Positions 5,987 to 22,027 of a stretch of DNA of 64,000 nt are shown piece by piece. Source of the DNA: Gemmatimonadaceae bacterium. GTDB lineage: Bacteria; Gemmatimonadota; Gemmatimonadetes; Gemmatimonadales; Gemmatimonadaceae. Numbering within the stretch: position 1 is the stretch's first letter; every line of letters starts with the position of its first letter. Location of the stretch: positions 224,001 through 288,000 of the forward strand of contig JBJMOW010000004.1 in assembly GCA_045803545.1 (NCBI GenBank), read 5' to 3'. Both the position numbers and the translations under genes were made by a program. A model generated the notes under the pieces. It was not told where the DNA came from. It saw only the letters and a list, made by a program, of their open reading frames with translations, and did no database searches.

Positions 5987-6367
5987 TTAACGAAGGTGTT
6001 TGTTGACGAGTCTGGTCATCTCGAACATCGAGACCTGGCTGCGTCCGAAGATAGGACGGAGGTTCTCGTCAGCGTTGATCATGCGGCGATTCTTCGAATC
6101 CTGCAGACCCTTACGCTTGATGTACTGCCACAGTTTCTTGGTGACTTCCGTGCGCGGCATCGCTCCACTGCCTACCACCGCAGCCAGATCACTGCTCGGC
6201 TGCATCGGCTTCATGAATGCCGGGTTTGGTGCGCGCTTTTTACCCGATGATTTCCGGCGCGTCTTGCGACCACTGCTCTTTCTCGCCGAGCTCTTTTTGC
6301 GACTTGATGACTTCCGCGAAGACTTCCGTGCCGATGACTTCCTGCCGCTCTTTCTTCTTGTTGCCAT
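5987..6367 (-). CDS. SWIB/MDM2 domain protein with basic Lys/Arg/Ser-rich N-terminal tail
   Basis: AFMKP..LAAVVG..MPRTEVTKKLWQYIK..LQD..NRRMINAD..VSMFEMT; first ~43 aa are RKSS-type repeats. Confidence 0.9.
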   Translation of the reverse strand: MATRRKSGRKSSARKSSRKSSSRKKSSARKSSGRKTRRKSSGKKRAPNPAFMKPMQPSSDLAAVVGSGAMPRTEVTKKLWQYIKRKGLQDSKNRRMINADENLRPIFGRSQVSMFEMTRLVNKHLR

Positions 6368-6538
6368 CTTGTCTCCTGGTTTGGTGATCCCAATGCACTC
6401 TGCTACAGAGTGAAACGCGGCCTGTCAGCGACGCAAACTATAGTCCTGCAGGGCGAAAGCAATAGGGAATGAGCAGAGTTTCCCTATGGGAAAAGCGATT
6501 CTTCATAGGGAAAAATCAAGAACGAACCGCCGAACGGC

Positions 6539-7432
6539 TCATTGCTCAGCCCAGCCATCCAGCATTTTGAACATTTTCACGTCGTAGGGATCGGGCGACG
6601 CATCGTCATCGGCGATGTCGTAATTCTCCTGCGGTGTCTCGAGAATCAGAGGTATGTTGCTGCTGCGGCGGTCCCTCATCAGCCACTCGAAAGGCTCCTT
6701 GCCGATGTGTCCGTCCCCGATGAGAACGTGCCGATCGCGGTTCGAGCCAAGCTCGTTCGCGCTGTCATTGAGATGAAAAAATGAGGGCGGTTCCCCTATG
6801 ATCTGCTCGAACTCGTCCAGGATGTCGGTGAATGCCTGTCGCGAGGCTGTGAGGTCGTATCCGGACGCGAACAGGTGACATGTGTCGAGGCCATATCCTG
6901 TTCGCGAGCGTAGCTGGCCGGGCACGGCGTCGAGAATGTCTTTGATCTCCTGTGCGGTCTTTCCCATCGTCTTGCCCGCGCCGGCAGTGTTCTCGACGAG
7001 CAGTCTCGTCTCCGAATTGATCGTTTTCAACGCCTGGGTGATCGCCTTGCCGATTCGCTTGGCGGAGTCGCTGCGGTCACTCGTGAGAGCAGAACCCGGG
7101 TGAAAGCAAACTGCGCCGACGCCGAGGGCGGTCGAGCGCTCCATCTCCTTGGTGAGTCCGGCACTGGCTCGCGCCCACTTCTCGTCATCGGGCGTCGCGA
7201 CGCTGAGCACGTACGCTGCGTGCACCACTACGTTTGCCGGCTTGATTTTGGTTTTTGCCAGCGCCTCCTTGAAGCGTGTCACCCGCTCCGGCTTAATGGT
7301 GGACTTGTCGCCGTAGAATTTGGGAATCGCGGTAAAGAGCTGCAGCGCGGTCATTCCCGCATTGGCCGCCCTCAATACCGTCATCTGGATGCCACCGTTA
7401 TCGATGGTGTGCGCACCTATGTATTTCGCCAT
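6539..7432 (-). CDS. nfo: Endonuclease IV (AP endonuclease)
   Basis: IGAH, HAAY, FHPG, ENTAG, DTCH, HLNDS..DRH..IG.G, ILETP metal motifs. Confidence 0.92.
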   Translation of the reverse strand: MAKYIGAHTIDNGGIQMTVLRAANAGMTALQLFTAIPKFYGDKSTIKPERVTRFKEALAKTKIKPANVVVHAAYVLSVATPDDEKWARASAGLTKEMERSTALGVGAVCFHPGSALTSDRSDSAKRIGKAITQALKTINSETRLLVENTAGAGKTMGKTAQEIKDILDAVPGQLRSRTGYGLDTCHLFASGYDLTASRQAFTDILDEFEQIIGEPPSFFHLNDSANELGSNRDRHVLIGDGHIGKEPFEWLMRDRRSSNIPLILETPQENYDIADDDASPDPYDVKMFKMLDGWAEQ

Positions 7433-7566
7433 GCCGCTTCCCGCTGCAAGTACTCTACCGTACGCATGCCGTGGCTATTGCACGGTCGTGCACAGAGTTT
7501 GATTATAGAATCTTCAGAGTGCGCTCGTTCGTTTATGGAGAGCGGCGCCGTCCGTCCAGCTGGCTG

Positions 7567-8319
7567 ATGAAAAGAATTTTCATACCAATCCTCGCGTTAT
7601 GTCTGTTCGCCGCCTCCGCACAGTCACAGACCGAAGCGCGCACAGATGTCATTTCCGGGCGAGTCACCGATCTTAACGGCCGGCCCGTCGCCGACGCCTT
7701 AGTCGGTGCGACGGCACCGGGCTCGAGCGTTACCCGCACATTCAGCACGGATCAAGACGGTAGATACAAGATCTATTTCCCGGGCACCCCATCGCAGTAC
7801 TCGCTACAGGTCAAGCGAATGGGTTTCGCGCCGGTTCAACGGACCATTACACGGCACACGAGCGAGCCCGAGCACATGACCGTGGACGTCCAGCTCGGCG
7901 GAGCGCCGCTCGCTCTGTCGATGGTGGAGATCGAGGGCAACACCGAGACGCCGCTGCCGCGCGAGGCCGAAAAACACTCTCTCGACGCGACCGTTCCGAA
8001 TCCGATCGCAATAATTCTGGAGATGAAGGACACACTGCACCTGAGCGCCGTTCAGATCGTGCGACTGGGTAGCCTCTCGGATAGCCTGCAGACGAAGAAT
8101 TCGCACATTTACAAGAACATCCGCACCCTGCTTGCCAAATCGCAGGAACAGGGCGATGCGACGCTGATGGCAGGCAGCGTGGCGATGATGCTCGAGGAAG
8201 CATCGCGGAACACCACCACTGCGCTCGTATCAGCCGGCAAGGTGTTGCGACCCGAGCAGTGGGCGATTCTTCCGGCTGATATCCGCGACCGCGAGTCTGA
8301 GAAGTCGGCTAACCAGTAG
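7567..8319 (+). CDS. Secreted protein with carboxypeptidase-regulatory-like domain
   Basis: Signal peptide MKRIFIPILALC (start reassigned to 7567); ISGRVTD..G.PV..A.V..TD..GRY pattern. Confidence 0.7.
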   Translation: MKRIFIPILALCLFAASAQSQTEARTDVISGRVTDLNGRPVADALVGATAPGSSVTRTFSTDQDGRYKIYFPGTPSQYSLQVKRMGFAPVQRTITRHTSEPEHMTVDVQLGGAPLALSMVEIEGNTETPLPREAEKHSLDATVPNPIAIILEMKDTLHLSAVQIVRLGSLSDSLQTKNSHIYKNIRTLLAKSQEQGDATLMAGSVAMMLEEASRNTTTALVSAGKVLRPEQWAILPADIRDRESEKSANQ

Positions 8320-8321
8320 GT

Positions 8322-9098
8322 CTACTTCCAGACTCCCTCGCGAAAGCCGACGCGGTCGATCGGCTCACCGTTCCGGGGCGGAGTCTTCCACCACACTGTA
8401 ATCCGGCCGTGATTTAGCGCAACCCACGGCGCGACAGCGGCGACATCATCGGGCGTGACCTGGCCCCGCTGATCGAAGAGATGACCCGTGGAGTGGGACA
8501 GCACGATGCCGATCCTCGGCGTCGTTGAGTTCGGATCCTCGAACACCACCACCACGCTGTCGCCTCGGCCCGCTACACTCGCCGCCGAAGGCGCGCTCCC
8601 GTAAACGACGGGCACTGGCGAGTGAAACATTCCGCCCTTGTCCATCGAGTGCGCGAAGAAAACGCCGGCGCCGTCACTCGCTTCGACGAAATAGACGAGG
8701 TACACGTAGCCGCTGGCCGGATCGTAAGTGATTCCCGGCGCTGGCCGCTGGCAACCACGGCGCCCGGCATCACGCGCATCCACATCTATTGCGGAGTCCC
8801 ATCTAGCGCCTCTATCGGGCGATCGCTGCAAGGACAGAATTACGCTGCTGTCGGAGCGAACCGACCACCAGCTTCTAAACAGCTCGCTCGTGTCACCAGC
8901 GGTTCGTATCGACATCACACATTGCGCGACCGTACCCGTGGTCGTGGGCAGTCCGGCGCTGGCGATCGCGCTGCGCGTGTCCGGATCTCCAAGCTGGGAG
9001 GAGCGGTAGCCGACGTTCCCCCACTCAACCGGCTCGGACACGCAGCCAACAAGAAAGGTCAGAGCGACCACTGGGTACCAGCTGACAGTCTTGCGCAC
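8322..9098 (-). CDS. Lipoprotein with sialidase/BNR-like (Asp-box) repeats
   Basis: LVGC lipobox after GTG 9098; RSPDRGARW, HSMDKGGMF, HSTGHLF repeats. Confidence 0.6.
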   Translation of the reverse strand: MRKTVSWYPVVALTFLVGCVSEPVEWGNVGYRSSQLGDPDTRSAIASAGLPTTTGTVAQCVMSIRTAGDTSELFRSWWSVRSDSSVILSLQRSPDRGARWDSAIDVDARDAGRRGCQRPAPGITYDPASGYVYLVYFVEASDGAGVFFAHSMDKGGMFHSPVPVVYGSAPSAASVAGRGDSVVVVFEDPNSTTPRIGIVLSHSTGHLFDQRGQVTPDDVAAVAPWVALNHGRITVWWKTPPRNGEPIDRVGFREGVWK

Positions 9099-9183
9099 GA
9101 CGCAGGTTAGCCCGGAGACATACGCCAGAGAAGCCCGCGCTAAGTATCTTTCGAGCGTAGTCGCCACCTCGAGGAACTTGCAA

Positions 9184-10944
9184 ATGGCTGCCTCCACAGT
9201 CCGACCGAAACGCGGCCCGGCCACTAAAGCCGCCGCTGATAAATCCCAGAAATCGCAGGCGACGAACGATGGTGCGTCGCCGCCAGTTGCCACCGAGCAA
9301 CCGATTCGTACCGCCACCGGCTTCAACGGAAATCGGCGGGTCCCGGCGCCAGTCAACGAGCCGATAAAGAGCTACGCGCCGGGCAGCGCCGAGCGGACCG
9401 CACTAAAGGAGCGGCTCCGCACCATGGCCGGCGAGAGGATCGAGATACCGCTCGTCATCGGCGGCAAAGAGGTCAGCACCGGAGATGTCGTCGATTCGGT
9501 GATGCCGCACAATCATCGACACGTGCTTGGCCAATGGCATCGCGCGCGCCCAGCCGATGTCGATGCCGCAATCAAGGCGGCGTCAGAAGCGGCGAAAGAT
9601 TGGGCCAACTGGTCATGGGAAGATCGCGCCGCAGTTTTTCTCAAGGCCGCCGAGCTGCTGGCGACGACGTGGCGCGCGACGCTCAACGCCGCGACGATGT
9701 TGGGTCAATCGAAGACTGCGTTCCAGGCGGAGATCGACGCGGCATGTGAGCTGATCGACTTCTGGCGCTTCAATCCGTTTTACGCGCAGCAGCTGTACGA
9801 CGAGCAGCCACTGAGCGACCACACGATGTGGAATCAGCTCGATTACCGACCGCTCGAAGGATTCGTCTATGCGGTGACGCCATTCAACTTCACCTCGATC
9901 GCTGGCAACCTGCCGACGGCCCCGGCGTTGATGGGCAACACCGTGATTTGGAAACCGGCGTCGAGCGCGATGATGAGCGCGCACTACATCATGAAGTTGC
10001 TGGAAGAGGCGGGGCTGCCGCCGGGCGTGATCAACTTCGTGGCCGGCGATCCGGCGATGATCTCCGACAAGCTGCTCGCGCATCGCGATTTGGCGGGCGT
10101 CCATTTCACCGGCAGCACGGCTGTGTTCAACAACATGTGGAAGACGATTGGCGCCAGTATGTCGCGCTACAGGTCCTATCCGAGAATCGTCGGTGAAACG
10201 GGCGGCAAGGATTTCATCGTCGCGCACCCGTCAGCGGATCCTGTTGCGCTCTCAGTCGCAATCGCGCGCGGCGGATTCGAGTACCAGGGACAGAAGTGCT
10301 CCGCGGTGAGCAGAGTGTACGTCCCGGAATCGATCTGGCCCGAAGTGCGTGATCGTACCGTCGCGATCATGAAGGAGCTCCGTATGGGCGACGTGACGGA
10401 TTTCCGGAACTTCATGGGTGCGGTTATCGACAAGAAGGCGTTTTCAAAGATTGGCGAGTATCTGGAGCACGGGAGATCGAACGCGAGCGTCGTGTCGGGC
10501 GGAGTCGCACGCGGTGAGCAGGGCTATTTCATCGAGCCGACTTTGATCGAGACCAAGGACCCGGCATTCCGGCTCCTTTGCGAAGAGATCTTTGGTCCGG
10601 TCGTGACAGCGCACGTCTATCCTGACAAGCGCTGGTCGGAGACGCTCAACATCGTCGATCAGACTTCCCCGTATGCACTGACAGGCTCGGTGTTCAGCAC
10701 CGATCGTCGCGCAATTCGCGAGGCGAACCTGGCACTGCGCAACGCCGCCGGAAATTTCTACATCAATGACAAGCCGACGGGTGCGGTAGTCGGCCAGCAG
10801 CCGTTCGGTGGCGCACGCGCTTCGGGCACAAACGACAAGGCCGGGTCCAAGCTCAATCTCGTGCGCTGGATCAGCGCGCGTACGGTCAAGGAGACCTTCT
10901 CGCCTCCGACCGATTATCGATATCCGTTCATGAGCGCGGAGTAA
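9184..10944 (+). CDS. pruA: L-glutamate gamma-semialdehyde (P5C) dehydrogenase
   Basis: NEPIKSYAPGS, PFNF, FTGST, GETGGKDF, YQGQKCSA, EEIFGP, QPFGGARASGTNDKAG; start reassigned to ATG 9184. Confidence 0.93.
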   Translation: MAASTVRPKRGPATKAAADKSQKSQATNDGASPPVATEQPIRTATGFNGNRRVPAPVNEPIKSYAPGSAERTALKERLRTMAGERIEIPLVIGGKEVSTGDVVDSVMPHNHRHVLGQWHRARPADVDAAIKAASEAAKDWANWSWEDRAAVFLKAAELLATTWRATLNAATMLGQSKTAFQAEIDAACELIDFWRFNPFYAQQLYDEQPLSDHTMWNQLDYRPLEGFVYAVTPFNFTSIAGNLPTAPALMGNTVIWKPASSAMMSAHYIMKLLEEAGLPPGVINFVAGDPAMISDKLLAHRDLAGVHFTGSTAVFNNMWKTIGASMSRYRSYPRIVGETGGKDFIVAHPSADPVALSVAIARGGFEYQGQKCSAVSRVYVPESIWPEVRDRTVAIMKELRMGDVTDFRNFMGAVIDKKAFSKIGEYLEHGRSNASVVSGGVARGEQGYFIEPTLIETKDPAFRLLCEEIFGPVVTAHVYPDKRWSETLNIVDQTSPYALTGSVFSTDRRAIREANLALRNAAGNFYINDKPTGAVVGQQPFGGARASGTNDKAGSKLNLVRWISARTVKETFSPPTDYRYPFMSAE

Positions 10945-11421: not shown

Positions 11422-14076
11422 ATGAGTACCGCTACAGAGCCACTGATCGACGCGGAGCAGTTGGAGGTTTCGCGAATCCGCGCCCTGCGCGGGCCCAACT
11501 ACTGGCGCCTCGCACCGGTCATCGCCTGCGACGTTCAACTCGGCAGCCTGGAGCACGTCAGCTCCGCTGACATCTCCGGATTCTACGAGCGCCTCACGGA
11601 GGCGCTGCCTACGCTCGCCGAGCATCACTGCACGCGACAGGAGCCGGGCGGATTTCTGGAGAGGTTGCGTGAGGGTACGCACCTCCCGCACATCCTCGAG
11701 CACGTTGCGCTGGAGCTGCAGTCGCTCACCGGCAGCGACGTCACCTTCGGGCGAGTTGTTCCTTCCGGTGATCCCCACACATGGTGGGTGATCGTCGCCT
11801 ACGAAGAAGAAGAGGTCGGGCTGCAGAGTATGCGCGACGCGGTGAAAATCATTCGCGCCTGCATCGCCGACCAGCCGATCGACGTCAACTCCATCGTCGA
11901 GCAGCTTCTCTCTCTGTACGAATCGGTTCGGCTCGGCCCATCGACGGCTGCGGTAGTCGAGGAGGCGAAACGACGCGGGATCCCCGTACGCCGTCTCAAC
12001 AACTACTCGCTCGTCCAGCTGGGACTCGGCAAGAATCTCCGGCGCATTCAGGCGACGCTATCGGACTATACGAGTGCGATCGCAGTCGAGATTGCCCAGG
12101 ACAAGGATGATACCAAGCGCGTGCTGGGCAACATCGGATTGCCGGTGCCGAAGGGTGACGTCGCGCGCTCACTCGAGCGTGCGCTGGAAATCGTCGACGA
12201 GGTCGGCTACCCAGTCATCCTGAAGCCGCTCGACGCCAGTCACGGGCGCGGCATTTCCGGTCGCATCGACAACGACGGGGCGCTGACTGAGGCGTGGGAG
12301 GACGCTCGCGAATTCGGCAATCGCATCGTCGTCGAGCAGTACACCGAAGGGCGCGACCATCGCGTGCTGGTCGTTAACGGACGAGTTGTCGCGTGCGCAG
12401 AGAGAATTCCAGCGCGCGTCATCGGAGATGGAACGAGTGCGATCGCTCAATTGATCGAGCGCGAGAACCGTGATCCGCGTCGAGGCGTCGGACATACCAA
12501 GACACTGACCAAGCTGCCGTCCGACTCGCGCACGGTCGCCTTCCTCGCCAAGCAGCAGCTCACGCTGCAATCGGTGCCGGCAAAGGGACAGGAAGTGTGT
12601 TTGCGCGGCACTGCCAATCTCTCTACGGGTGGGACTTCAATCGATCGCACCGACGAGATGCATCCGGATAACATCACTGCGTGTGAGATGGCGGCGGGCA
12701 TCATCGGACTCGACATCGCCGGCATTGATGTTCTGACGCGGGATATCTCCGTTCCATTCCGCGAGAACGGCGCAGTCATCATCGAGGTCAATGCGGGACC
12801 GGGGATCAGGATGCATACGCATCCGACAGAGGGTACGGCGCGAAACGTCGCGGCGCCGATCGTAGACATGCTATATCCGCCCGGCACCAAGGCAACGATT
12901 CCGGTGATTGCGGTCACTGGCACCAACGGCAAGACGACGACCGTTCGTCTCATCGCTCACCTCTTCCGACTCGGCGAGAACGTCGTCGGCTTCACCACCA
13001 CCGACGGCACCTATCTGCAGAACAGGCTCGTGCTCGAGGGTGATATGACCGGCCCGTTCTCCGCCAACATCATTCTGTCGAATCCAACTGTGGACATCGC
13101 CGTGCTCGAGACGGCGCGCGGCGGCCTGCTGCGCGCAGGACTCGGCTTCGACGAAGTCGACGTCGGTGTCGTGCTCAACGTCAGTGCCGATCATCTCGGC
13201 CTCCGGGGCATCAACACCGTCGAGCAACTCGCCGATGTCAAAGCGGTGGTCGCGGCGGTTGTGAAGCGCGAAGGACATGCGGTGCTCAATGCGGACGATC
13301 CGCTCGTATATGCGATGCGCGACCGCACGCCGGGAGATCTTGTTCTTTTCTCCACCAGGCCGGAGGGGGAAAGCGAAGAATTCGAGGATCACCTCTCACG
13401 GAACGGTATCGGCGCCCGGATCGAGAACGACACCTTTGTCATCCGCCGCGGACGGCTTCGTATTCCTATCGCGCCGGTTCGCGAAGTCCCGCTGATGCTC
13501 GGCGGCGCCGCCAGGTTCCAGCAGCAGAACATTCTCGCCGCAATCGCGACGGCGTATGTGCAAGGCATGCGGTACGACGACATTCGAGCGGGCCTGTTGT
13601 CGTTTTTCCCATCGCCGTCGTTGACCCCGGGCCGCCTCAACCTGATGCGAGTGCAGAACGGTCGCGTGCTCGTCGACTACGCTCACAATACCGCAGCGAT
13701 TCGCGGGCTCATGGATTTTGTTCAGTCGATCGACGCGACCCGGCGAATCGCTCTCGTCACCGCTCCGGGTGACCGAAGGGATGAGGATCTACGAGAAGTC
13801 GGGCGCCTCGTAGCGCATCTGGATTACGTGATCGTCAAGGAAGACCAAGAGCGGCGCGGCCGAGCGAAAGGAGACATCGCAGATCTGATCGTGGACGGCC
13901 TGATGGATGGAGGGATGAGAGAGAATCAATACGAGGTCATCTACACTGAGCAGGAGGCAATCCACCACGCGCTCGGCCGCATGAAAGACAACGACCTCGT
14001 GGTCATTCTCGCTGATGACGTCAAAGCCAGCATTGAGTGCGTGCGCAAGTATGCCCCTGAAGGCGCACGTTCGTGA
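11422..14076 (+). CDS. cphA: Cyanophycin synthetase (CphA1 type)
   Basis: 884 aa; LRGPNYW, CX19HxxEH N domain, LGPST, ATP-grasp (KPLDASHGRG, ANLSTGG, EVNAGPG), Mur-like domain (VTGTNGKTT, ETARGG, DYAHN). Confidence 0.95.
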   Translation: MSTATEPLIDAEQLEVSRIRALRGPNYWRLAPVIACDVQLGSLEHVSSADISGFYERLTEALPTLAEHHCTRQEPGGFLERLREGTHLPHILEHVALELQSLTGSDVTFGRVVPSGDPHTWWVIVAYEEEEVGLQSMRDAVKIIRACIADQPIDVNSIVEQLLSLYESVRLGPSTAAVVEEAKRRGIPVRRLNNYSLVQLGLGKNLRRIQATLSDYTSAIAVEIAQDKDDTKRVLGNIGLPVPKGDVARSLERALEIVDEVGYPVILKPLDASHGRGISGRIDNDGALTEAWEDAREFGNRIVVEQYTEGRDHRVLVVNGRVVACAERIPARVIGDGTSAIAQLIERENRDPRRGVGHTKTLTKLPSDSRTVAFLAKQQLTLQSVPAKGQEVCLRGTANLSTGGTSIDRTDEMHPDNITACEMAAGIIGLDIAGIDVLTRDISVPFRENGAVIIEVNAGPGIRMHTHPTEGTARNVAAPIVDMLYPPGTKATIPVIAVTGTNGKTTTVRLIAHLFRLGENVVGFTTTDGTYLQNRLVLEGDMTGPFSANIILSNPTVDIAVLETARGGLLRAGLGFDEVDVGVVLNVSADHLGLRGINTVEQLADVKAVVAAVVKREGHAVLNADDPLVYAMRDRTPGDLVLFSTRPEGESEEFEDHLSRNGIGARIENDTFVIRRGRLRIPIAPVREVPLMLGGAARFQQQNILAAIATAYVQGMRYDDIRAGLLSFFPSPSLTPGRLNLMRVQNGRVLVDYAHNTAAIRGLMDFVQSIDATRRIALVTAPGDRRDEDLREVGRLVAHLDYVIVKEDQERRGRAKGDIADLIVDGLMDGGMRENQYEVIYTEQEAIHHALGRMKDNDLVVILADDVKASIECVRKYAPEGARS

Positions 14077-15185
14077 GCGGCGGTCGTTTCCCCGATCCAA
14101 AATCCGAGATCAGGATGACGACACTCCACGCCACGCGCGGAGCGAATTACTGGTCGCGGTTGTCGGTCATCCGCATGGATCTCAGCATCGGTGCATACGA
14201 GGAGATTTCTTCGGCTGACGTACCGGGTTTCACCCAATCGCTGGTGGCAACGATGCCCGGTTTGCGCGATCACCGGTGCAGCATCGGCGAGCCGGGTGGA
14301 TTCCTGATTCGACTCAAGCGCGGCACCTATTGCGCACACATCGTCGAGCACGTCGCGCTCGAGCTACAGGGGATGATCGGTTACGACGTGGGTTACGGCC
14401 GCACACGTGGTGGGGACAAAGTTGGCGATTACACGCTTATCTTCGAGCACGAGCACGAGGCAGTGGGAATGCGCGCTGCCGCGCTGGCACTGGAGATCGT
14501 GCAAGCGGCGTTCGCCGGCACGCTCAAATCAGTAGATCATGCCGTCGCCGAACTGGAAGCATTGTCGAAGACGCCCAAGACCCCGGCGCTCATTCAACAC
14601 GTGTTATGTGGCATTACGGGCGGCAGTTATCGGGATGAAACGAGAAGTGAGCTGGTGCGCCTCGGCTTCGGCAACGGGGAGCTGATCGTTGACGTCTCGC
14701 CCGCGTATGTCTTGCAGCAGGGACTCCCCTATTCGCGCGCTGACATCGGAATCATACTCGACTCTCATCTCACCGATGTTCCCGAGCGATACCAGGTGCA
14801 ACGACGCGCCGACCGATTGGTGTCGGTTCTTGCGGACGCGGTGCCTGAAGATGGCATCGTGATCGTTCCAGCAAAGAACTGGGAAGTGCAGGATCTCGTC
14901 CGGGATGCTGGCTGCCGCGTCGCAATTTTTGCAATCGATGGCGATGTCACGGCCCGTGACAAGAAAGTCGCACGTGCTTGCGCCACAGTCGAAGGGCGCC
15001 GGATCATGATCGAGCAGCTGGATACGGTGGTTGAGGGAGGCTGGCTCCACGACCGGGCGCCCGTCGCAGCTCAAGTCGCGGCGGCTCTTGCTGCGTTTAC
15101 GCTGAACGAGTTCGAGCCGGTCGCCGCTCAGCGGACAGACGGATCGCGACGCTCGTCGTTAGATGAGCGCGTGGGAGGTCCCTGA
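14073..15185 (+). CDS. Short CphA paralogue: N domain plus degenerate Mur-like domain, no ATP-grasp domain
   Basis: RGANYW, CSIGEPGGF..HIVEHVALELQ; GTG start overlaps the cphA stop. Confidence 0.85.
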   Translation: MSGGRFPDPKSEIRMTTLHATRGANYWSRLSVIRMDLSIGAYEEISSADVPGFTQSLVATMPGLRDHRCSIGEPGGFLIRLKRGTYCAHIVEHVALELQGMIGYDVGYGRTRGGDKVGDYTLIFEHEHEAVGMRAAALALEIVQAAFAGTLKSVDHAVAELEALSKTPKTPALIQHVLCGITGGSYRDETRSELVRLGFGNGELIVDVSPAYVLQQGLPYSRADIGIILDSHLTDVPERYQVQRRADRLVSVLADAVPEDGIVIVPAKNWEVQDLVRDAGCRVAIFAIDGDVTARDKKVARACATVEGRRIMIEQLDTVVEGGWLHDRAPVAAQVAAALAAFTLNEFEPVAAQRTDGSRRSSLDERVGGP

Positions 15186-16084
15186 TTACAGAAGCGACTA
15201 ACTCGAACGGACGCGCGCGTCGTCGGCTTCGCGACGCCAGAGGAAGTCTCATACTCATTGGCGGCGGCACTACCGCCACCGGCGCAGCACTCGGCGCCTT
15301 CATCGAGATGACCGGCGCCAGAGAAGGCGCTTCAATCGTCGGATTTACGACGGCATCGAGTCAAGTGAGCGTTGCTCGCGAAATGTGGCTGGCAGATCTG
15401 TCACAGGCTGGCGCCACCAACGCTTCGATTCCCATCGTCGGCGCGCGGGAGCACGCGTCGGATCCCCGGATCATCGACGAGGTTCGCAAGGCGAAGGGAG
15501 TTTTTCTTGGTGGGGGCGATCAGGTGAAGCTGGTGTCATGCCTGAGCGGAACTCCGCTCGAGGAGGCCATTCGTGATGCGTATCTCGATGGCGCCATCAT
15601 TTGCGGCAGCAGCGCCGGCGCCGCGGCGCTGACCAAGACGACACTCGCCGGCAACGAAGTCGATGAAGAGGGAAAGCTCGTCGAACAGTACATCGGCCCT
15701 GGGCTCGGCCTCCTCGGCTATCATACTCTGGTCGACACGCACTTCACTCAGCGTCGCCGGCTTTATCGTCTCTTTGTGGCGATTGCGGAATTTCCGGCAT
15801 TGATGGGACTTGGCATCGACGAAGACACCGCACTAATCGTGAAGCGCGAGATCGGCACTGTCGTCGGAAAGGGCGGAGTGACGTTCGTCGACGGCAGCAG
15901 TGTTCGCTTCAACAACGCCAGCGACGTGACGAAAGGGCCCGAACTGACCATCAGCGCTTTGCGCGTCGGCATCGTCGGAACGGGGCAGCAGTTCAACCTG
16001 CGCAAGCGCGAAGTCGTCGCGCTCCTCTCCCCGCCCGCCGCGCACGAAGTCCAATCGCGCGTCACCTCCGGCCGAGAGACTTAG
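15182..16084 (+). CDS. cphB: Cyanophycinase (peptidase S51); start probably non-canonical, upstream of ATG 15308
   Basis: GSLILIGGG, GGDQ, GSSAGA (Ser), DTHFTQRRRL (His), GIDEDTA (Glu). Confidence 0.88.
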   Translation: MITEATNSNGRARRRLRDARGSLILIGGGTTATGAALGAFIEMTGAREGASIVGFTTASSQVSVAREMWLADLSQAGATNASIPIVGAREHASDPRIIDEVRKAKGVFLGGGDQVKLVSCLSGTPLEEAIRDAYLDGAIICGSSAGAAALTKTTLAGNEVDEEGKLVEQYIGPGLGLLGYHTLVDTHFTQRRRLYRLFVAIAEFPALMGLGIDEDTALIVKREIGTVVGKGGVTFVDGSSVRFNNASDVTKGPELTISALRVGIVGTGQQFNLRKREVVALLSPPAAHEVQSRVTSGRET

Positions 16085-16502: not shown

Positions 16503-18854
16503 CTAAAACCTCGCCTCGACGTAGAGATTCGCGCGGACCGCATGCTCAGGGTAGATACCTCTGGCGAGATCGACACGAATGAGACCGTCCATGAACGACG
16601 CGCCGACACCGACGCCGCTGAGCGGCCTTCCCGGGTGCGAGACACTGTCACGCGAACCGGCCCAGCCCAAATCGGCGAAGGCGATTTTGCGGAATGCGAC
16701 ATTGCGCGTGCCGATTTCCAGGCTGCTCGTCCAGAACGTATCTCCAACGCCCGCACCAGCACGCTGTCCGCGCACGGTCCCCACACCACCGATGTAGAAG
16801 TTCTTCTGGATCGGCAAATGTCCGCCCGACGTGCCTCCGCCGAGCGTAACCGCGGCGTCGAGGCCGCCCAGTCCGTGTGAAAGCGTTGTCTGCAACAGCC
16901 CGCGGGAATAATCGAACGTACCTGCTGCCGCTTCGAGCTTGAGGTCGGTCAGCGCGCGGAATCCGTGCGGGTCGAGCCCGAACGACGAGTGATGCAGAGC
17001 GGACACGCCGACGATTTTCCCGTTCTCGGCGTTGATGTTGGTCAGGCCCCCTTTCACGCCTCCTGGATGCGCCACCGAGAACTCCGTATTAACGGTCGCG
17101 TCGAAGTGCTGCTCCGCGAACAGGCGCCACGTAGTGAACAGCGGTCCACCGTCGCCAGTTATCTCGCCGCCCCAGGTGCGATAGTAAAAGCCTTCATCGC
17201 GGCCGAAGAACAGAGCCGAAAGTGAGCTGCTGAAGCCGAGTGGGTCACCCCAATCGTTGGCTGCCATCAGTCGCCGATAGACGCCAACACCGATACTGCG
17301 TCGCCCATCAGTACGCTCGATCGATGCTTCGGCATTCGGCGACAAGTCTGCAACACCGATTCTGAACGACGAGTGCGCCGAGTATCCCTCACCGAGAACC
17401 TTGTCGACTGCGAATCCGCTGGAGAGTCCCTCGATCCGGTTGAAGCGCGTCCATGGAAACCCATATGAGATGCTCGCGGGCAACGGCGAGAAGCCTGGCT
17501 GCGCGGTAAGAGTCAACGCTTCGGCGACTAGCGCATCACGCTCAGCCGAACCGAACACCGTTTCGCCCTCATCGTAGATCGACTTCGGTAACGAGCTCGA
17601 GTGAGCGAGCGCGACTGTATCGCACGGAACTCTGACCATGATCTGCAGATTCTCTTCGGTGCGATCGTGTACGCGTACGCGCTCAGTTCCGGTCTTACAC
17701 TCGTCGTGACGGCGATCGCGCCTGGCAGCTCGCGAGAGCGAGTCCGTCGCGGTATCAGCGACCGCGATCGTCACGGGCGTCATTGGCTCGTCGCCATTGA
17801 CGCTCGAATAGGTGTAGCGCTGCTCCAGCTTGAACGGGATGCGCATGAAGCTCACCTGCGCTTCGCCTTCGATCGTCTGCGCGCGCGGCAGCCAGAATTC
17901 TCCCTCGTGCAACCCGTACTCGACGGTGACGGCACTGATATTCGCCTTCATCGGTGTCATAATCGGCTTGAGCCAGCCAGGAATGTCATCGTCGGGGTCC
18001 TTCTCGTCCTGCGATTCTTCCTTGGCGACGGCCATGATGTCCATCTCCTGCGCCATGCGATAAACCGCGCGCACGAGATGAGCAGTCGACATGTCGAACC
18101 AGAGAGATCCGACGCCGACGTTCCATTTTGGCTGGCGCGGACGAATTCTCAGCTCGCGCAGCTCGATTCGCTTGCCGCCGGGAAGCTGGAAGGTCACCGA
18201 GTCGCCCGACTCGTAGGTGTAATACGCTTCCGCTCCTTCAGCGAGCGGATGGATCATCTCGCCTTCGTCAATTTTCGCCTTGGCGAGTCCGGAGCCGATC
18301 CAAAGTGTCTCGCGCCCGGGTGCATACGGGATGTCTGCCATCTCGCCGCTCATATTCAGATCGGGATCGCCATCGTTGATGCCCTCGATCATTGGGAAGA
18401 CCGCGCGCTGTCCGGTGACATCGACAATCGCGCCTTTGCCGCGCTGCCACACTACGTGTGATGCGCGCTCGCCGCGGAGCAGCAACCTGCTGCGACCGAT
18501 TTTCTTGAATCCCATCCCGACAGAAAGGCGCTCGTAACCGCTCGACTCATAGCCGCTGAGCGTCGAGTCCTGAATCAGCCGCGCCATTCTTGCGCGCTGC
18601 AGGAGATCACGGGCGGCGGGATCCTTGAACGCGTTTGCCAGGGTTTTCGGCGTCAGAGGCAATTGACGGGCGATGCGCGCCGTGCGCTGCAGTGAATCTC
18701 GATGCTGTCTTACAACCCGCATCGAATCGCGTCTGACATCCCGTTGATACGCGATGGAGTCTCGTTTTGCCTTGTCGACGCTGTCTTTCGGCTTGTTGCC
18801 GATTGTTACGGAAATCTGAGTCTGCGCGAAGACAGCGAGGGCGAGGACGAGCAT
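16503..18854 (-). CDS. Large outer-membrane beta-barrel protein of unknown function
   Basis: Signal peptide, RFNRIEGL, GGVGTVRG (Omp85-like loop), amphipathic strands, terminal Phe (YVEARF). Confidence 0.7.
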   Translation of the reverse strand: MLVLALAVFAQTQISVTIGNKPKDSVDKAKRDSIAYQRDVRRDSMRVVRQHRDSLQRTARIARQLPLTPKTLANAFKDPAARDLLQRARMARLIQDSTLSGYESSGYERLSVGMGFKKIGRSRLLLRGERASHVVWQRGKGAIVDVTGQRAVFPMIEGINDGDPDLNMSGEMADIPYAPGRETLWIGSGLAKAKIDEGEMIHPLAEGAEAYYTYESGDSVTFQLPGGKRIELRELRIRPRQPKWNVGVGSLWFDMSTAHLVRAVYRMAQEMDIMAVAKEESQDEKDPDDDIPGWLKPIMTPMKANISAVTVEYGLHEGEFWLPRAQTIEGEAQVSFMRIPFKLEQRYTYSSVNGDEPMTPVTIAVADTATDSLSRAARRDRRHDECKTGTERVRVHDRTEENLQIMVRVPCDTVALAHSSSLPKSIYDEGETVFGSAERDALVAEALTLTAQPGFSPLPASISYGFPWTRFNRIEGLSSGFAVDKVLGEGYSAHSSFRIGVADLSPNAEASIERTDGRRSIGVGVYRRLMAANDWGDPLGFSSSLSALFFGRDEGFYYRTWGGEITGDGGPLFTTWRLFAEQHFDATVNTEFSVAHPGGVKGGLTNINAENGKIVGVSALHHSSFGLDPHGFRALTDLKLEAAAGTFDYSRGLLQTTLSHGLGGLDAAVTLGGGTSGGHLPIQKNFYIGGVGTVRGQRAGAGVGDTFWTSSLEIGTRNVAFRKIAFADLGWAGSRDSVSHPGRPLSGVGVGASFMDGLIRVDLARGIYPEHAVRANLYVEARF

Positions 18855-18855
18855 G

Positions 18856-19572
18856 CTACCTGCCTGTGGACTTGGGAATCGAGAAATTGACGCCGACTTG
18901 CCACAACACGAGATCGGTTTTGCTGTTGCGCACGTTCAGCGTAACGCTGCCATCGGGGTTATCCGTGATATCGCCCTTCTTGAGATAGCTCGCTCTTGCG
19001 CCGTAGTGATACCGAGCGCCGAGGTTAAGCGAGAACGACGCGCCAATGGGAATCAGGAAGCCGCCCCCAAAAACTCCCGCTTTCGCCCAGTCACCATGAT
19101 TGGTATTGCACTGATCCTGGACCGAGTTGTCTTCGGCAGACACGCACGACTGCGTGTAAAAGCGCACCAGGGCATAAGACGCACTCGCATAAGGGCGGAG
19201 CACACCGTCCGGAAACTGGAGCTGCAAGCCAAGCGAGCCGAATCCGATGCGATTGTTCGTGCTCAGATCGAGCGGAATGCCGCCGTAATAGCCGATAAAG
19301 CCGCCTTCATGGCCGTACTGGACGCCGCCGCCATCGGCGCGAAGCGCAAACCATCCCTTCGGATCGATCTTCATCAAGGCGTTCATATCGAAGCCGTAAC
19401 CGGTCGGAATGCCAGCGGTGGCAAACTCGCCTTTGGGCTGCGAGATCGCGAAATCGCCCCCAATTGAAAAACGCGAAGGAATCTCGGGAGCGTTGTATAC
19501 CTGTGCGCCAACGGCCGATGCCGACGCAAAAAAGAAAGCAGTGTTCAGTAGAACCACGGCCTTAAACAGCAT
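18856..19572 (-). CDS. Small outer-membrane beta-barrel protein
   Basis: Signal peptide from ATG 19572 (purine-rich SD), alternating strands, RPYA, WQVGVNF. Confidence 0.7.
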   Translation of the reverse strand: MLFKAVVLLNTAFFFASASAVGAQVYNAPEIPSRFSIGGDFAISQPKGEFATAGIPTGYGFDMNALMKIDPKGWFALRADGGGVQYGHEGGFIGYYGGIPLDLSTNNRIGFGSLGLQLQFPDGVLRPYASASYALVRFYTQSCVSAEDNSVQDQCNTNHGDWAKAGVFGGGFLIPIGASFSLNLGARYHYGARASYLKKGDITDNPDGSVTLNVRNSKTDLVLWQVGVNFSIPKSTGR

Positions 19573-19645
19573 AGTTTCTCCCCTCTGGTTTCCCGCTAGC
19601 GTTCGCACGGACAGTGCCTCTGTCGAAGCCAACGCTAGACCATTG

Positions 19646-19672
19646 TACGCGTTGAGGTTAGGTCTGGTTTCA
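19646..19672 (-). promoter_or_regulatory. ECF-type promoter for the OMP genes
   Basis: TGAAACC-N16-CGTA on the - strand. Confidence 0.5.
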
Positions 19673-19724
19673 CGGCAGTAACGAAGCGACGCTGACCTCC
19701 TTCCGTGACATCGATCATCGAATC

Positions 19725-20507
19725 ATGGCTACAACTCTCGAGAGCTCAGGTTCCGCACTCCGCGTCACCGGGCTGAGAAAGGCATACGCTGACGTTGTCG
19801 CCGTCGATGGCCTCGACCTGGAGGTCCAGGTGGGCGAGTGCTTCGGCCTGCTCGGACCAAATGGCGCCGGCAAGACCACCACTATCGAAATCTGTGAAGG
19901 CCTTCTCACGCCCGACGCCGGCTCAGTGGAGGTTCTGGGGAAGCGTTGGGAGAACAATGCCGACGAACTCCGGGAGCTTCTTGGAATTCAGCTGCAGGAC
20001 ACCCAGCTGGCAGAAAAGCTCACGGTCGATGAGACACTCACGCTCTTTCAGAGCTTCTATCGCAACGCCCGCGCGATCGACGAAGTAATCGACGAAGTCG
20101 AGCTCGGTGAAAAGAGAAGTTCGCGCGTCGGCACCTTGTCCGGAGGACAAAAACAGCGCCTCGCCGTTGCGTGCGCCCTCGTCGGCAACCCGCAGCTGAT
20201 TTTTCTCGACGAGCCGACGACTGGCCTCGATCCCCAATCGCGCCGCCAGCTATGGAATCTGATTTCTCGCTTTCAATCAGAAGGCCGTACGATCGTGCTG
20301 ACCACGCACTACATGGAAGAAGCGGAGCGCCTCTGCGATCGCGTTGCAATCGTCGATCACGGTCACGTCATCGCGCTCGGCACGCCGCGCGAGCTGATGG
20401 AGTCGATCGACGTCTCGAATCTCCCGCCACCGGAGCCGCGCAAAACGACCGCGACCCTCGAAGACGTCTTCGTCGTGCTGACGGGAAGGCACCTGCGCGA
20501 TGAATAG
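19725..20507 (+). CDS. ABC transporter ATP-binding protein
   Basis: GPNGAGKT, LSGGQKQ, FLDEPTTGLD. Confidence 0.92.
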   Translation: MATTLESSGSALRVTGLRKAYADVVAVDGLDLEVQVGECFGLLGPNGAGKTTTIEICEGLLTPDAGSVEVLGKRWENNADELRELLGIQLQDTQLAEKLTVDETLTLFQSFYRNARAIDEVIDEVELGEKRSSRVGTLSGGQKQRLAVACALVGNPQLIFLDEPTTGLDPQSRRQLWNLISRFQSEGRTIVLTTHYMEEAERLCDRVAIVDHGHVIALGTPRELMESIDVSNLPPPEPRKTTATLEDVFVVLTGRHLRDE

Positions 20508-21585
20508 CGCGGCGACGAAAACACTCTCGAGACAGGAGCGAGGATTCAAGCGCAGCTCGCTGGTCCAGCTGACGCTCGTCCGCTTTCGCGAATTCATCCG
20601 CGAGCCAGAGGCGGTGTTCTGGACTTTCATTTTCCCGATTCTCCTCGCGGCGGGATTGGGTATCGCGTTCAGACAACGCGGCCCTGACAAGGTATCAGTC
20701 GGTGTCATCAATTCTGGTGGCAGCGCGACACTGACCCAGTCGCTGACAAACGATTCGACGCTCGTGGTCGAGACCTTCACCGATAGCGCGGGCGAGAAAG
20801 CACTTCGCACGGGCAAGATCGCGTTGCTCGTCATCCCTGGCTCACGCCCCGACAGCGTCCACTACATCTACGACAAAAGCCGCGGCGATGCAGCGAACGC
20901 GCGGGTGCTGGTCGATCGCGCCGTTCAAGTCGGAGCCGGCCAGGTCAGCCCGGTGCATTCAACAAGTGAATTTGTCACCGAGCCTGGCTCGCGTTACATC
21001 GATTTCCTCATTCCGGGCCTTCTCGGCATGAACCTGATGGGCTCGAGCATCTGGGCACTTGGCTTCGCAATCGTGAGTGCGCGTAGCAAGAAGCTGCTCA
21101 AACGATTGATGGCGACTCCGATGTCGCGCGCCCAATACCTTGCCTCATTCCTGCTGTCCCGGCTGGTGTTTCTGCTACTCGAGATTGTCACTCTGCTCGG
21201 CTTCGGTCACTTTGCGTTCGGAGTCCCACTGCGCGGCTCGCTCGCTACGCTGCTGTTGATTTGTCTAATGGCGGCACTCTCGTTCGGGGGGCTGGGACTC
21301 TTGAGCGCTTCCCGCGCACGCACGACCGAGGCGGTTTCCGGCATCATGAACTTCATCATGTTGCCGATGTGGATTTTCTCGGGCGTGTTCTTCTCGTCGG
21401 CGAATTTCCCCAAAGCGGTCCAGCCATTCATTAAAATGCTGCCGCTGACGGCGGTGAACGATGCATTACGCCTCAACATGCTGGAGGGAGCGTCGCTCCC
21501 GGCCGTGACGCCGCAGCTGGCAGTAATCATCGCCTGGGGTATCGTCACGTTCTTCGCGGCGCTCAAGCTCTTTCGCTGGCGCTGA
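20500..21585 (+). CDS. ABC-2 type permease
   Basis: REPEAVFW, YIDFLIPG, LLKRL, FSGVFFS, terminal FRWR. Confidence 0.9.
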   Translation: MNSAATKTLSRQERGFKRSSLVQLTLVRFREFIREPEAVFWTFIFPILLAAGLGIAFRQRGPDKVSVGVINSGGSATLTQSLTNDSTLVVETFTDSAGEKALRTGKIALLVIPGSRPDSVHYIYDKSRGDAANARVLVDRAVQVGAGQVSPVHSTSEFVTEPGSRYIDFLIPGLLGMNLMGSSIWALGFAIVSARSKKLLKRLMATPMSRAQYLASFLLSRLVFLLLEIVTLLGFGHFAFGVPLRGSLATLLLICLMAALSFGGLGLLSASRARTTEAVSGIMNFIMLPMWIFSGVFFSSANFPKAVQPFIKMLPLTAVNDALRLNMLEGASLPAVTPQLAVIIAWGIVTFFAALKLFRWR

Positions 21586-21595
21586 GATTTCGATA

Positions 21596-22027
21596 GTGGC
21601 GGACAACTCGCTCTACGTCGACGAAACGCTCTCGATACCGCGGCATGAGCTCGATATACGCGTGTCGCGCTCGTCGGGCGCGGGGGGCCAGCACGTGAAC
21701 AAGACGTCCTCGCGTGTGGAGATCTTCTGGAACATCGCGTCGTCGCCAACCCTGACCGACGATCAGCGGGCGCGGCTGCAGGGAAAGCTCGCATCACGCC
21801 TGACTACCGACGGCAGCATCCGCGTCGTTGCCAGTGACATGCGCAGCCAAACGCGGAACCGTGAGATCGCCGAGGAGCGCCTGGCTGATCTGATCGCCAG
21901 GTCTTTGGTTGTGCCGAGAAAGCGGCGGGCGACCAAACCAACCAAAGCATCGAAAGAAGCGAGACTCGACACAAAGCGTCGGCATTCGAACAAGAAGCGC
22001 GAGCGGAGCGATCGATCGTTTGACTGA
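21596..22027 (+). CDS. arfB: Alternative ribosome-rescue peptidyl-tRNA hydrolase
   Basis: SGAGGQHVNK (GGQ), RSQTRNR, basic C-terminal tail. Confidence 0.92.
   Translation: MADNSLYVDETLSIPRHELDIRVSRSSGAGGQHVNKTSSRVEIFWNIASSPTLTDDQRARLQGKLASRLTTDGSIRVVASDMRSQTRNREIAEERLADLIARSLVVPRKRRATKPTKASKEARLDTKRRHSNKKRERSDRSFD

Follow-up and report, generated by a model that had tools for sequence, protein, structure and literature searches.

Cyanophycin synthetase CphA1 carries in its N domain a hydrolase site in which C59, H79 and H83 bind metal and E82 is the base, and the cyanophycin chain is held there by S60, R70, E90 and Y110 together with the M-domain residues S603 and E607 (PMC9262961, cited here and below for its available text). 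The same text argues that this hydrolase is necessarily slow, since fusion to the polymerase leaves expression no means of balancing the two activities, and reports that the excised N domain of SuCphA1 acts in trans and is insoluble without mutation of a loop packed against the M domain. Here we describe a gene, called X below, in a window of 64,000 nucleotides (the whole stretch analyzed, positions 224,001 to 288,000 of contig JBJMOW010000004.1, assembly GCA_045803545.1, from a Gemmatimonadaceae bacterium). X encodes a CphA-type N domain joined to a ligase-dead M core, and we consider it probable, from its sequence and a structure model, that the product is a stand-alone metal-dependent endo-cyanophycinase whose fragments prime CphA, give the cyanophycinase CphB more ends to work on, or both. 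Metal binding, cleavage, substrate, and physiological role are what we infer for X from the evidence below. The gene and its parts, in positions of the window, are as follows.

14073..15185, forward strand: gene X, an open reading frame (ORF) with a GTG start, encoding a CphA-derived N domain and a ligase-dead M core, 370 amino acids
14115..14567, forward strand: N domain of X, residues 15-165, metallopeptidase-like (PF18921, 126.8 bits; E 1e-28 to 7LG5)
14277..14351, forward strand: Cx19HxxEH motif of X, with C69, H89, E92, and H93 equivalent to SuCphA1 C59, H79, E82, and H83 (sequence, alignment to 7LG5)
14568..14597, forward strand: short linker at the site of the missing G (ATP-grasp) domain of about 320 residues (hhalign, structural overlay)
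14598..15113, forward strand: ligase-dead M core, residues 176-347, with no Mur lid after it (hhalign; overlay on Mur ligase cores, Z about 14-16)
14610..14642, forward strand: former P-loop, with the catalytic Lys replaced by Arg187 and the adjacent Mg-binding Thr position variable (profile alignment)
14823..14837, forward strand: S251 and D255, equivalent to SuCphA1 S603 and E607 (alignment to 7LG5; D in 110 of 116 rows)
15114..15182, forward strand: C-terminal tail, variable, of low model confidence (alignment, structure model)

Alignment to 7LG5 pairs the metal ligands and base of CphA1 with C69, H89, H93, and E92 of X, and its chain contacts with S70, R80, G100, Y120, S251, and D255. An original prediction, made from the letters of the window alone, had placed RGANYW and Cx19HxxEH in the N-terminal part; they are found at residues 22-27 and C69-x19-H89-x-x-E92-H93, respectively. 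The metal motif is kept in 151 of 153 full-length X proteins, a set in which the query, its copy in the database, members of clusters, and a single protein from a different lineage are counted. Residue tallies for X were taken from 37 locus-derived rows, 36 of them distinct: H57, C59, S60, F67, R70, H79, E82, H83, E87, and Y110 (SuCphA1 numbering) are each present in 37/37, position 607 is acidic in 37/37, and S603 is found in 25/37. In the mechanism that we propose, C69, H89, and H93 would bind a metal, probably zinc, and E92 would activate water; X would then cut the poly-Asp backbone internally and release short (beta-Asp-Arg)n pieces.

Residues 12-202 of X are 36% identical to the neighboring CphA (E 3e-35), and PF18921 is the sole Pfam match in the protein (residues 35-145, 126.8 bits against a cut-off of 27). 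Pairwise BLAST is blind to the M-core homology, which required profiles and structure. By profile, residues from about 168 to 345 align on the M core of CphA (hhalign probability 92, E 6e-7), reproducing both of the motif pairings on which a Mur-like C-terminal half had been proposed. The ATP-grasp domain is missing, as had likewise been proposed: the C-terminal half aligned to the CphA G domain with an hhalign probability of 0.6, and zero of 117 aligned rows gave a Pfam ATP-grasp match. X has no match to PF08245 or PF02875 and scores 173.7 bits on TIGR02068, under the cut-off of 850. Within its M core, about 39 residues are deleted after the P-loop, the Mur lid is gone, R561 is Pro in 37/37, and the D585-H586 pair is lost. 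Because Lys499 and the lid are required for ligation by TeCphA1 (PMC9427784, available text, which also gives the roles of Lys499 and Thr500) and both are lost in X, we conclude that X cannot add Asp or Arg. Such a protein probably arose from a copy of cphA that lost both its ATP-grasp domain and its Mur lid by deletion.

An AlphaFold model of X, built without templates from 117 alignment rows, reached a predicted local distance difference test score (pLDDT) of 94.5 and a predicted template modeling score (pTM) of 0.86, and superseded an earlier model from 37 close rows (pLDDT, 62.7). The CphA1 structure entries are dated 2021-22 and postdate the training data of the structure-prediction model. 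When overlaid on substrate-bound CphA1 (7TXV), 328 of 336 residues were matched at 2.6 Å with a Z of 32.7, across chain residues 3-712; N domain and M core account for the entire 336-residue model, which again leaves the ATP-grasp domain out. The M core by itself has the Mur core fold (MurD, 3LK7; Z 15.9, 159 residues, 2.9 Å). The N domain is predicted to pack on the M core as in CphA1, and since the two overlay as one body, the two-domain groove at the zinc site is predicted to be intact. The dead M core would act as a scaffold for the N domain and as one wall of the chain groove over the metal, and the insolubility of the excised N domain without its loop mutation may explain why X has kept this core, for solubility and for the groove wall.

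A retained M core could also serve another purpose. X might be mainly a binding or regulatory subunit that binds cyanophycin granules or uses its M core to dock on the CphA G domain, with catalysis slight or incidental, and we regard this as unlikely. Docking is conceivable because in the TeCphA1 tetramer the M core is in contact with three G cores (PMC9427784, available text), so that a free M core could take such a place, and X is never found without the subtype-b CphA described below. The M core also has conserved patches of its own among Gemmatimonadaceae (K268, W270, D274, and R277), and at the old nucleotide site R187 is Arg in 105/116 rows and D207 is Asp in 93/116. These patches, however, fade among distant members of the family, and the backing helix of X holds few basic residues, position 127 being Ala and position 131 Glu or Asp. 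Pure binding, moreover, would not need E92 and the supporting H67, R80, and E97, which are invariant in 37/37. The original prediction had listed a granule-binding regulator beside an endo-cyanophycinase; the residues of the active site and groove, together with the geometry predicted for N domain and M core, favor the latter.

A protein search with X returned 1428 matches among 8000 scored candidates. Among the matches listed, at least 120 are full-length relatives that share 72-100% identity with X across 86-100% of its length, several of them carrying an automatic "cyanophycin synthetase" label, and a profile search recovered shorter members of about 300-370 amino acids at 29-51% identity. 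Relatives with a taxon name belonged to Gemmatimonadota in 26/26 loci, and the high-score matches in ESM Atlas were solely the family's own Gemmatimonadota clusters. In a plasmid collection, 21 records matched the N domain only, and none reached 80% coverage.

Ratios of nonsynonymous to synonymous substitution (dN/dS) were computed by the Nei-Gojobori method on 19 loci, for pairs with dS of 0.05-1.5. Median dN/dS was 0.145 for the N domain of X (150 pairs) and 0.25 for its M core (86 pairs), while the neighboring genes gave 0.11, 0.08, and 0.04 for the N domain, G domain, and M core of CphA and 0.21 for CphB; these values are rough, as dS lies near 1.1-1.2 and pairs are non-independent, and the maximum of any pair was 0.56. 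Both domains of X are under purifying selection. The original prediction had called the Mur-like domain decayed; with a median of 0.25, it is catalytically dead yet not decaying. Full-length orthologues under purifying selection, whose absence had been named as grounds for abandoning a functional reading, do exist. In a quick maximum-likelihood tree built from 97 N domains, midpoint-rooted and showing no donor, the 32 X rows lay together on one side of a branch, apart from the neighboring CphAs (Shimodaira-Hasegawa-like approximate likelihood ratio test, SH-aLRT, 97). The genome of the window has a single cphA and a single X, and a recent duplication within it is ruled out by this separate clade and the 36% identity between the two.

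That X is a decaying duplicate of cphA with no function of its own is hardly credible. Such a relic would fit the loss of both ligase sites, the two members without the motif, and the patchy occurrence of X (15 of 401 genomes), but selection and conservation have for the most part refuted it: the family counts at least 120 full-length relatives that share 72% identity or more and has members at identities as low as about 30%, its dN/dS lies far below 1, it forms an old clade apart from subtype-b CphA, its gene order is conserved, and its fold is predicted with confidence. In two assemblies (L025 and L069), cphA and X are frameshifted, through either sequencing error or local decay.

The two genes that flank X in the window are the following.

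11422..14076, forward strand: cphA, full-length cyanophycin synthetase of subtype b, 884 amino acids (TIGR02068, 1123.7 bits; cut-off 850)
15182..16084, forward strand: cphB, cyanophycinase of subtype b, with a probable CTG or ATT start at the stop of X (TIGR02069, 169.2 bits; cut-off 126.6)

This order is widely kept. After one duplicate was dropped, 40 genome loci held X, and synteny, which the original prediction had proposed to examine, proved to be cphA-X-cphB in 31 of them; three have cphA-X without that cphB, two have X-cphB without cphA, and four are cut by a contig end. The adjacency of X and cphB persists where cphA lies elsewhere or 2.9-3.7 kb off (L021, L060, L134, and L151). Across 401 Gemmatimonadota genomes, an N-domain match was found in 112 and X in 15. 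Two operon types occur: subtype a, the commoner one, with the order cphB-cphA-N+M ligase, and subtype b, cphA-X-cphB, the CphAs of the two being about 42% identical. The accessory N+M ligase of subtype a (about 570 amino acids) has HxxEH in 0/40 and the Mur P-loop in 35/40. Most subtype-a CphAs carry a two-residue insertion in the motif, Cx21HxxEH (loci L075-L114, L066, and L071-L074).

Eighteen genomes carry subtype-b CphA, and in one more (G400) the gene is split over contigs. X is present in 15 of these 19, and all 15 genomes with X have subtype-b CphA; the four without X have a subtype-a CphA at the same locus. Subtype-b CphB occurs in 13 of the 401 genomes, all within the 15 that hold X. 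The gene links point toward CphA and CphB alike, X never being found without subtype-b CphA, nor subtype-b CphB without X. As the genomes with X are kin, no statistic is claimed for this co-occurrence. One genome (G272) has a second full-length CphA, about 50% identical, with HxxEH lost from its N domain (L115:5500-8207), with X-cphB and the subtype-b cphA on other contigs. At L064:3635-6551, a cphB and an isoaspartyl-dipeptidase-like gene face cphA-X, with another cphB, near a histidine-kinase-like ORF (labels by eye), and a similar two-cphB arrangement stands beside X in L023 and L026.

The CphA of the window retains its catalytic residues at the G and M sites as well as Cx19HxxEH, and has an altered N-site groove (T101V, R102V, Y110W, and E607A in SuCphA1 numbering). 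Among subtype-b CphAs, Ser60 is present in 16/37, Val101 in 36/37, Arg102 in 1/37, Trp110 in 36/37 (Tyr in none), and an acid at 607 in 0/37, while the 43 subtype-a CphAs have Ser60 in 42, Thr101 in 42, Arg102 in 41, Tyr110 in 43, and an acid at 607 in 43. A separate set of metagenome loci (33 of 73 that hold X) gave the same picture, the neighbors of X having Val101 in 10/10 and an acid at 607 in 0/20 where these positions were covered. A changed groove in CphA next to the canonical set of these residues in X fits X having taken over chain cutting. The simpler idea that the neighboring CphA just lost Cx19HxxEH is ruled out, since the full metal motif is kept, with H57, C59, R70, H79, E82, and H83 each in 37/37. 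Pieces released by X would prime this partner synthetase with its remodeled groove, and would supply the exo-acting CphB with extra chain ends. As a rough split, should X cleave, its task may be mainly primer supply, a little less probably mainly breakdown with CphB, and less probably again both.

Deviations in both partner enzymes might instead mean that the subtype-b operon makes a variant cyanophycin, with another side chain or a modified polymer, for which X would be the peptidase or editor; we hold this to be quite unlikely. The N-site groove of CphA does deviate, as does subtype-b CphB, with DTHF in 34/34 and the E-D-K after the first GG absent in 33/33 scored, against DQHF in 44/48 and E-D-K in 21/48 of other CphB-like proteins. 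The groove of X is nevertheless largely canonical, and subtype-b CphB retains its Ser-His-Glu triad at invariant positions and has three invariant Arg C-terminal to the catalytic His. The G- and M-site residues checked in subtype-b CphA are canonical as well (E215, Glu or Asp in 37/37, R323, N394, S396, and R458; roles from the available text of PMC9427784), and H267 is Gln in 6/37.

Several observations weigh against X as a dedicated endo-cyanophycinase. Two members of its family have lost Cx19HxxEH, and E90, a listed side-chain contact, is not kept in X (Thr in 17, Gly in 12, and Ser in 4 of 37); it is likewise absent from Gemmatimonadota CphAs. The catalytic Glu, E82, is invariant in subtype-b CphA (37/37), which suggests that this synthetase has a working site of its own; as a source of primers, X could then be redundant. 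Primer-dependent Tm and Ab CphA1 have Glu at 607, which makes this residue no diagnostic of hydrolase activity, and in the available text of PMC9262961 T101 contacts the polymer through its backbone, R102 is unlisted as a contact, and R100A has no effect. The dN of the X N domain is below that of the CphA N domain solely at deeper distances (0.17-0.20 vs 0.26-0.30) and above it in close pairs. Finally, about 97 of the 401 genomes have a single N-domain match or lack X, and subtype-a CphA is common; as the genomes are also kin, its presence in all four subtype-b genomes without X is a weak pattern.

The GTG start of X overlaps the stop of cphA as GTGA, the coupling that had been predicted, and it is supported by a PDPxxExR stretch conserved upstream of Met15. 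Predicted coupling to cphB would run by way of CTG 15182, which overlaps the stop of X, or ATT 15185, the only start-like codons at this junction in the window, and not by way of the ORF-finder start ATG 15308, as the conserved CphB N terminus lies 5' of that codon. No ATG, GTG, or TTG stands ahead of the conserved first strand (15167-15310), and CTG or ATT is likely to be the start codon of cphB. A canonical cphB start is absent at the junction in 9/31 scored loci; at the stop of X, CTG and/or ATT is present in most loci from Gemmatimonadaceae, and GTGA or ATGA in others. A noncanonical start suggests weak, coupled translation of the cyanophycinase.

A promoter scan gave 0 sites against 1.2 expected, and terminator-like sites numbered 6 against 3.6 expected, neither count being informative. 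Five of 20 listed sequencing runs are RNA, with small shares; two of three RNA runs yielded short contigs identical to X (X11 14704-14897; X15 14790-14958 and 15036-15212), which cannot reveal transcription, strand, or level and were not used as support. Prediction of a complex of X with CphB scored 0.00, which is no evidence either way. Outside the operon, flanks 5987-10944 and 16503-22027 hold housekeeping- or transport-like ORFs by eye (a SWIB-domain protein, endonuclease IV-like, P5C dehydrogenase-like, an ABC transporter pair, and ArfB-like). Elsewhere in the same genome (contigs C4/C6), one cyanophycinase-like gene lies behind chemotaxis-methylesterase-like and histidine-kinase-like ORFs (L116:3664-4515) and another behind a TonB-dependent-receptor-like ORF (L117:3707-4720), all labeled by eye.

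In the open literature we found no natural protein described with this build; subscription papers and supplements lay outside the search, and a mention there is possible. Overall, we conclude that the X family is real, conserved, and uncharacterized; its active site is of a known kind, and the occurrence of that site in a stand-alone build is apparently undescribed. A natural free version of the hydrolase would provide a direct test of the slow-because-fused argument, by showing whether it is the faster enzyme and whether its task lies in priming, control of chain length, or breakdown. If our reading is true, an endo step is added to a pathway of synthetase, exo-cyanophycinase, and dipeptidase. 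Primer independence raised cyanophycin yields about twofold (PMC9262961), and X is a candidate soluble primer generator for bioproduction and a possible source of defined oligomers. Automatic "cyanophycin synthetase" labels, moreover, include proteins unable to synthesize.

Other CphA derivatives that lack or have reduced the G domain (P0223 and P0286-P0399) have the motif intact in 131 of 133 proteins examined. They include proteins of about 620 amino acids whose P-loop is dead (two of these are named, as Akkermansiaceae and Luteolibacter), of about 640 amino acids (some Gemmataceae and Singulisphaera), and shorter forms; they sit outside the X clade, and some may be assembly fragments. Their existence outside the clade means that this solution may have arisen more than once. 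A bolder proposal, possible in our view and rather doubtful, is that X is the first natural stand-alone endo-cyanophycinase; that in the subtype-b system the third activity of CphA1 has become a gene of its own, the groove of the synthetase being detuned and the supply of primers, the length of chains, and the mobilization of granules falling to a dedicated protein; and that other motif-keeping derivatives without a G domain (about 390-680 amino acids, some of them named as Verrucomicrobia and Planctomycetes, on other branches of the tree) are independent arrivals, endo-cleavage being a general and unrecognized step of turnover.

Among known systems, X shares with CphA1 (TIGR02068; SuCphA1 7LG5/7TXV and TeCphA1 7WAC/7WAE) the N fold, Cx19HxxEH, the supporting residues, most groove residues (E90 is not kept, and S603 is found in 25/37), and the predicted arrangement of N domain and M core, and differs in having no G domain, no Mur lid, a dead M P-loop, and a gene of its own. 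CphA2 (7TA5 and 8FXH) is likewise a CphA in reduced form, its M domain truncated and inactive, and it matches the fold of X (Z 13.3, 217 residues, 4.3 Å); the original prediction contrasted the two correctly, as CphA2 keeps an active G domain and, in the available text of bioRxiv 10.1101/2023.04.15.537035, its N domain is inactive; it has no N-site motif, the reverse of X. The activity proposed for X is that of the excised SuCphA1 N domain, which in trans makes a primer-dependent CphA1 primer independent (PMC9262961), although that is a laboratory construct with two solubilizing mutations, whereas X occurs in nature and has retained its M core. The uncharacterized subtype-a N+M "half" CphA ligases also lack the G domain and lie beside cphA and cphB, yet they are the mirror image of X, with HxxEH gone and the Mur P-loop usually kept. 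CphB (an S51 serine peptidase, TIGR02069) degrades cyanophycin and adjoins X but is unrelated in fold and chemistry, and is an exo-enzyme according to PMC9262961. The same text describes a likeness, local only, between the CphA1 N domain and the M16 inverzincins and peptide deformylase in HxxEH and C-H-H metal geometry; M16 peptidases and peptide deformylase are absent among the fold matches listed for X, which excludes nothing. With the Mur ligases, X has the core fold in common, without the P-loop GKT or the C-terminal substrate domain. In its proposed function X resembles the third site of CphA1, yet it is not CphA1, CphA2, or a Mur ligase.

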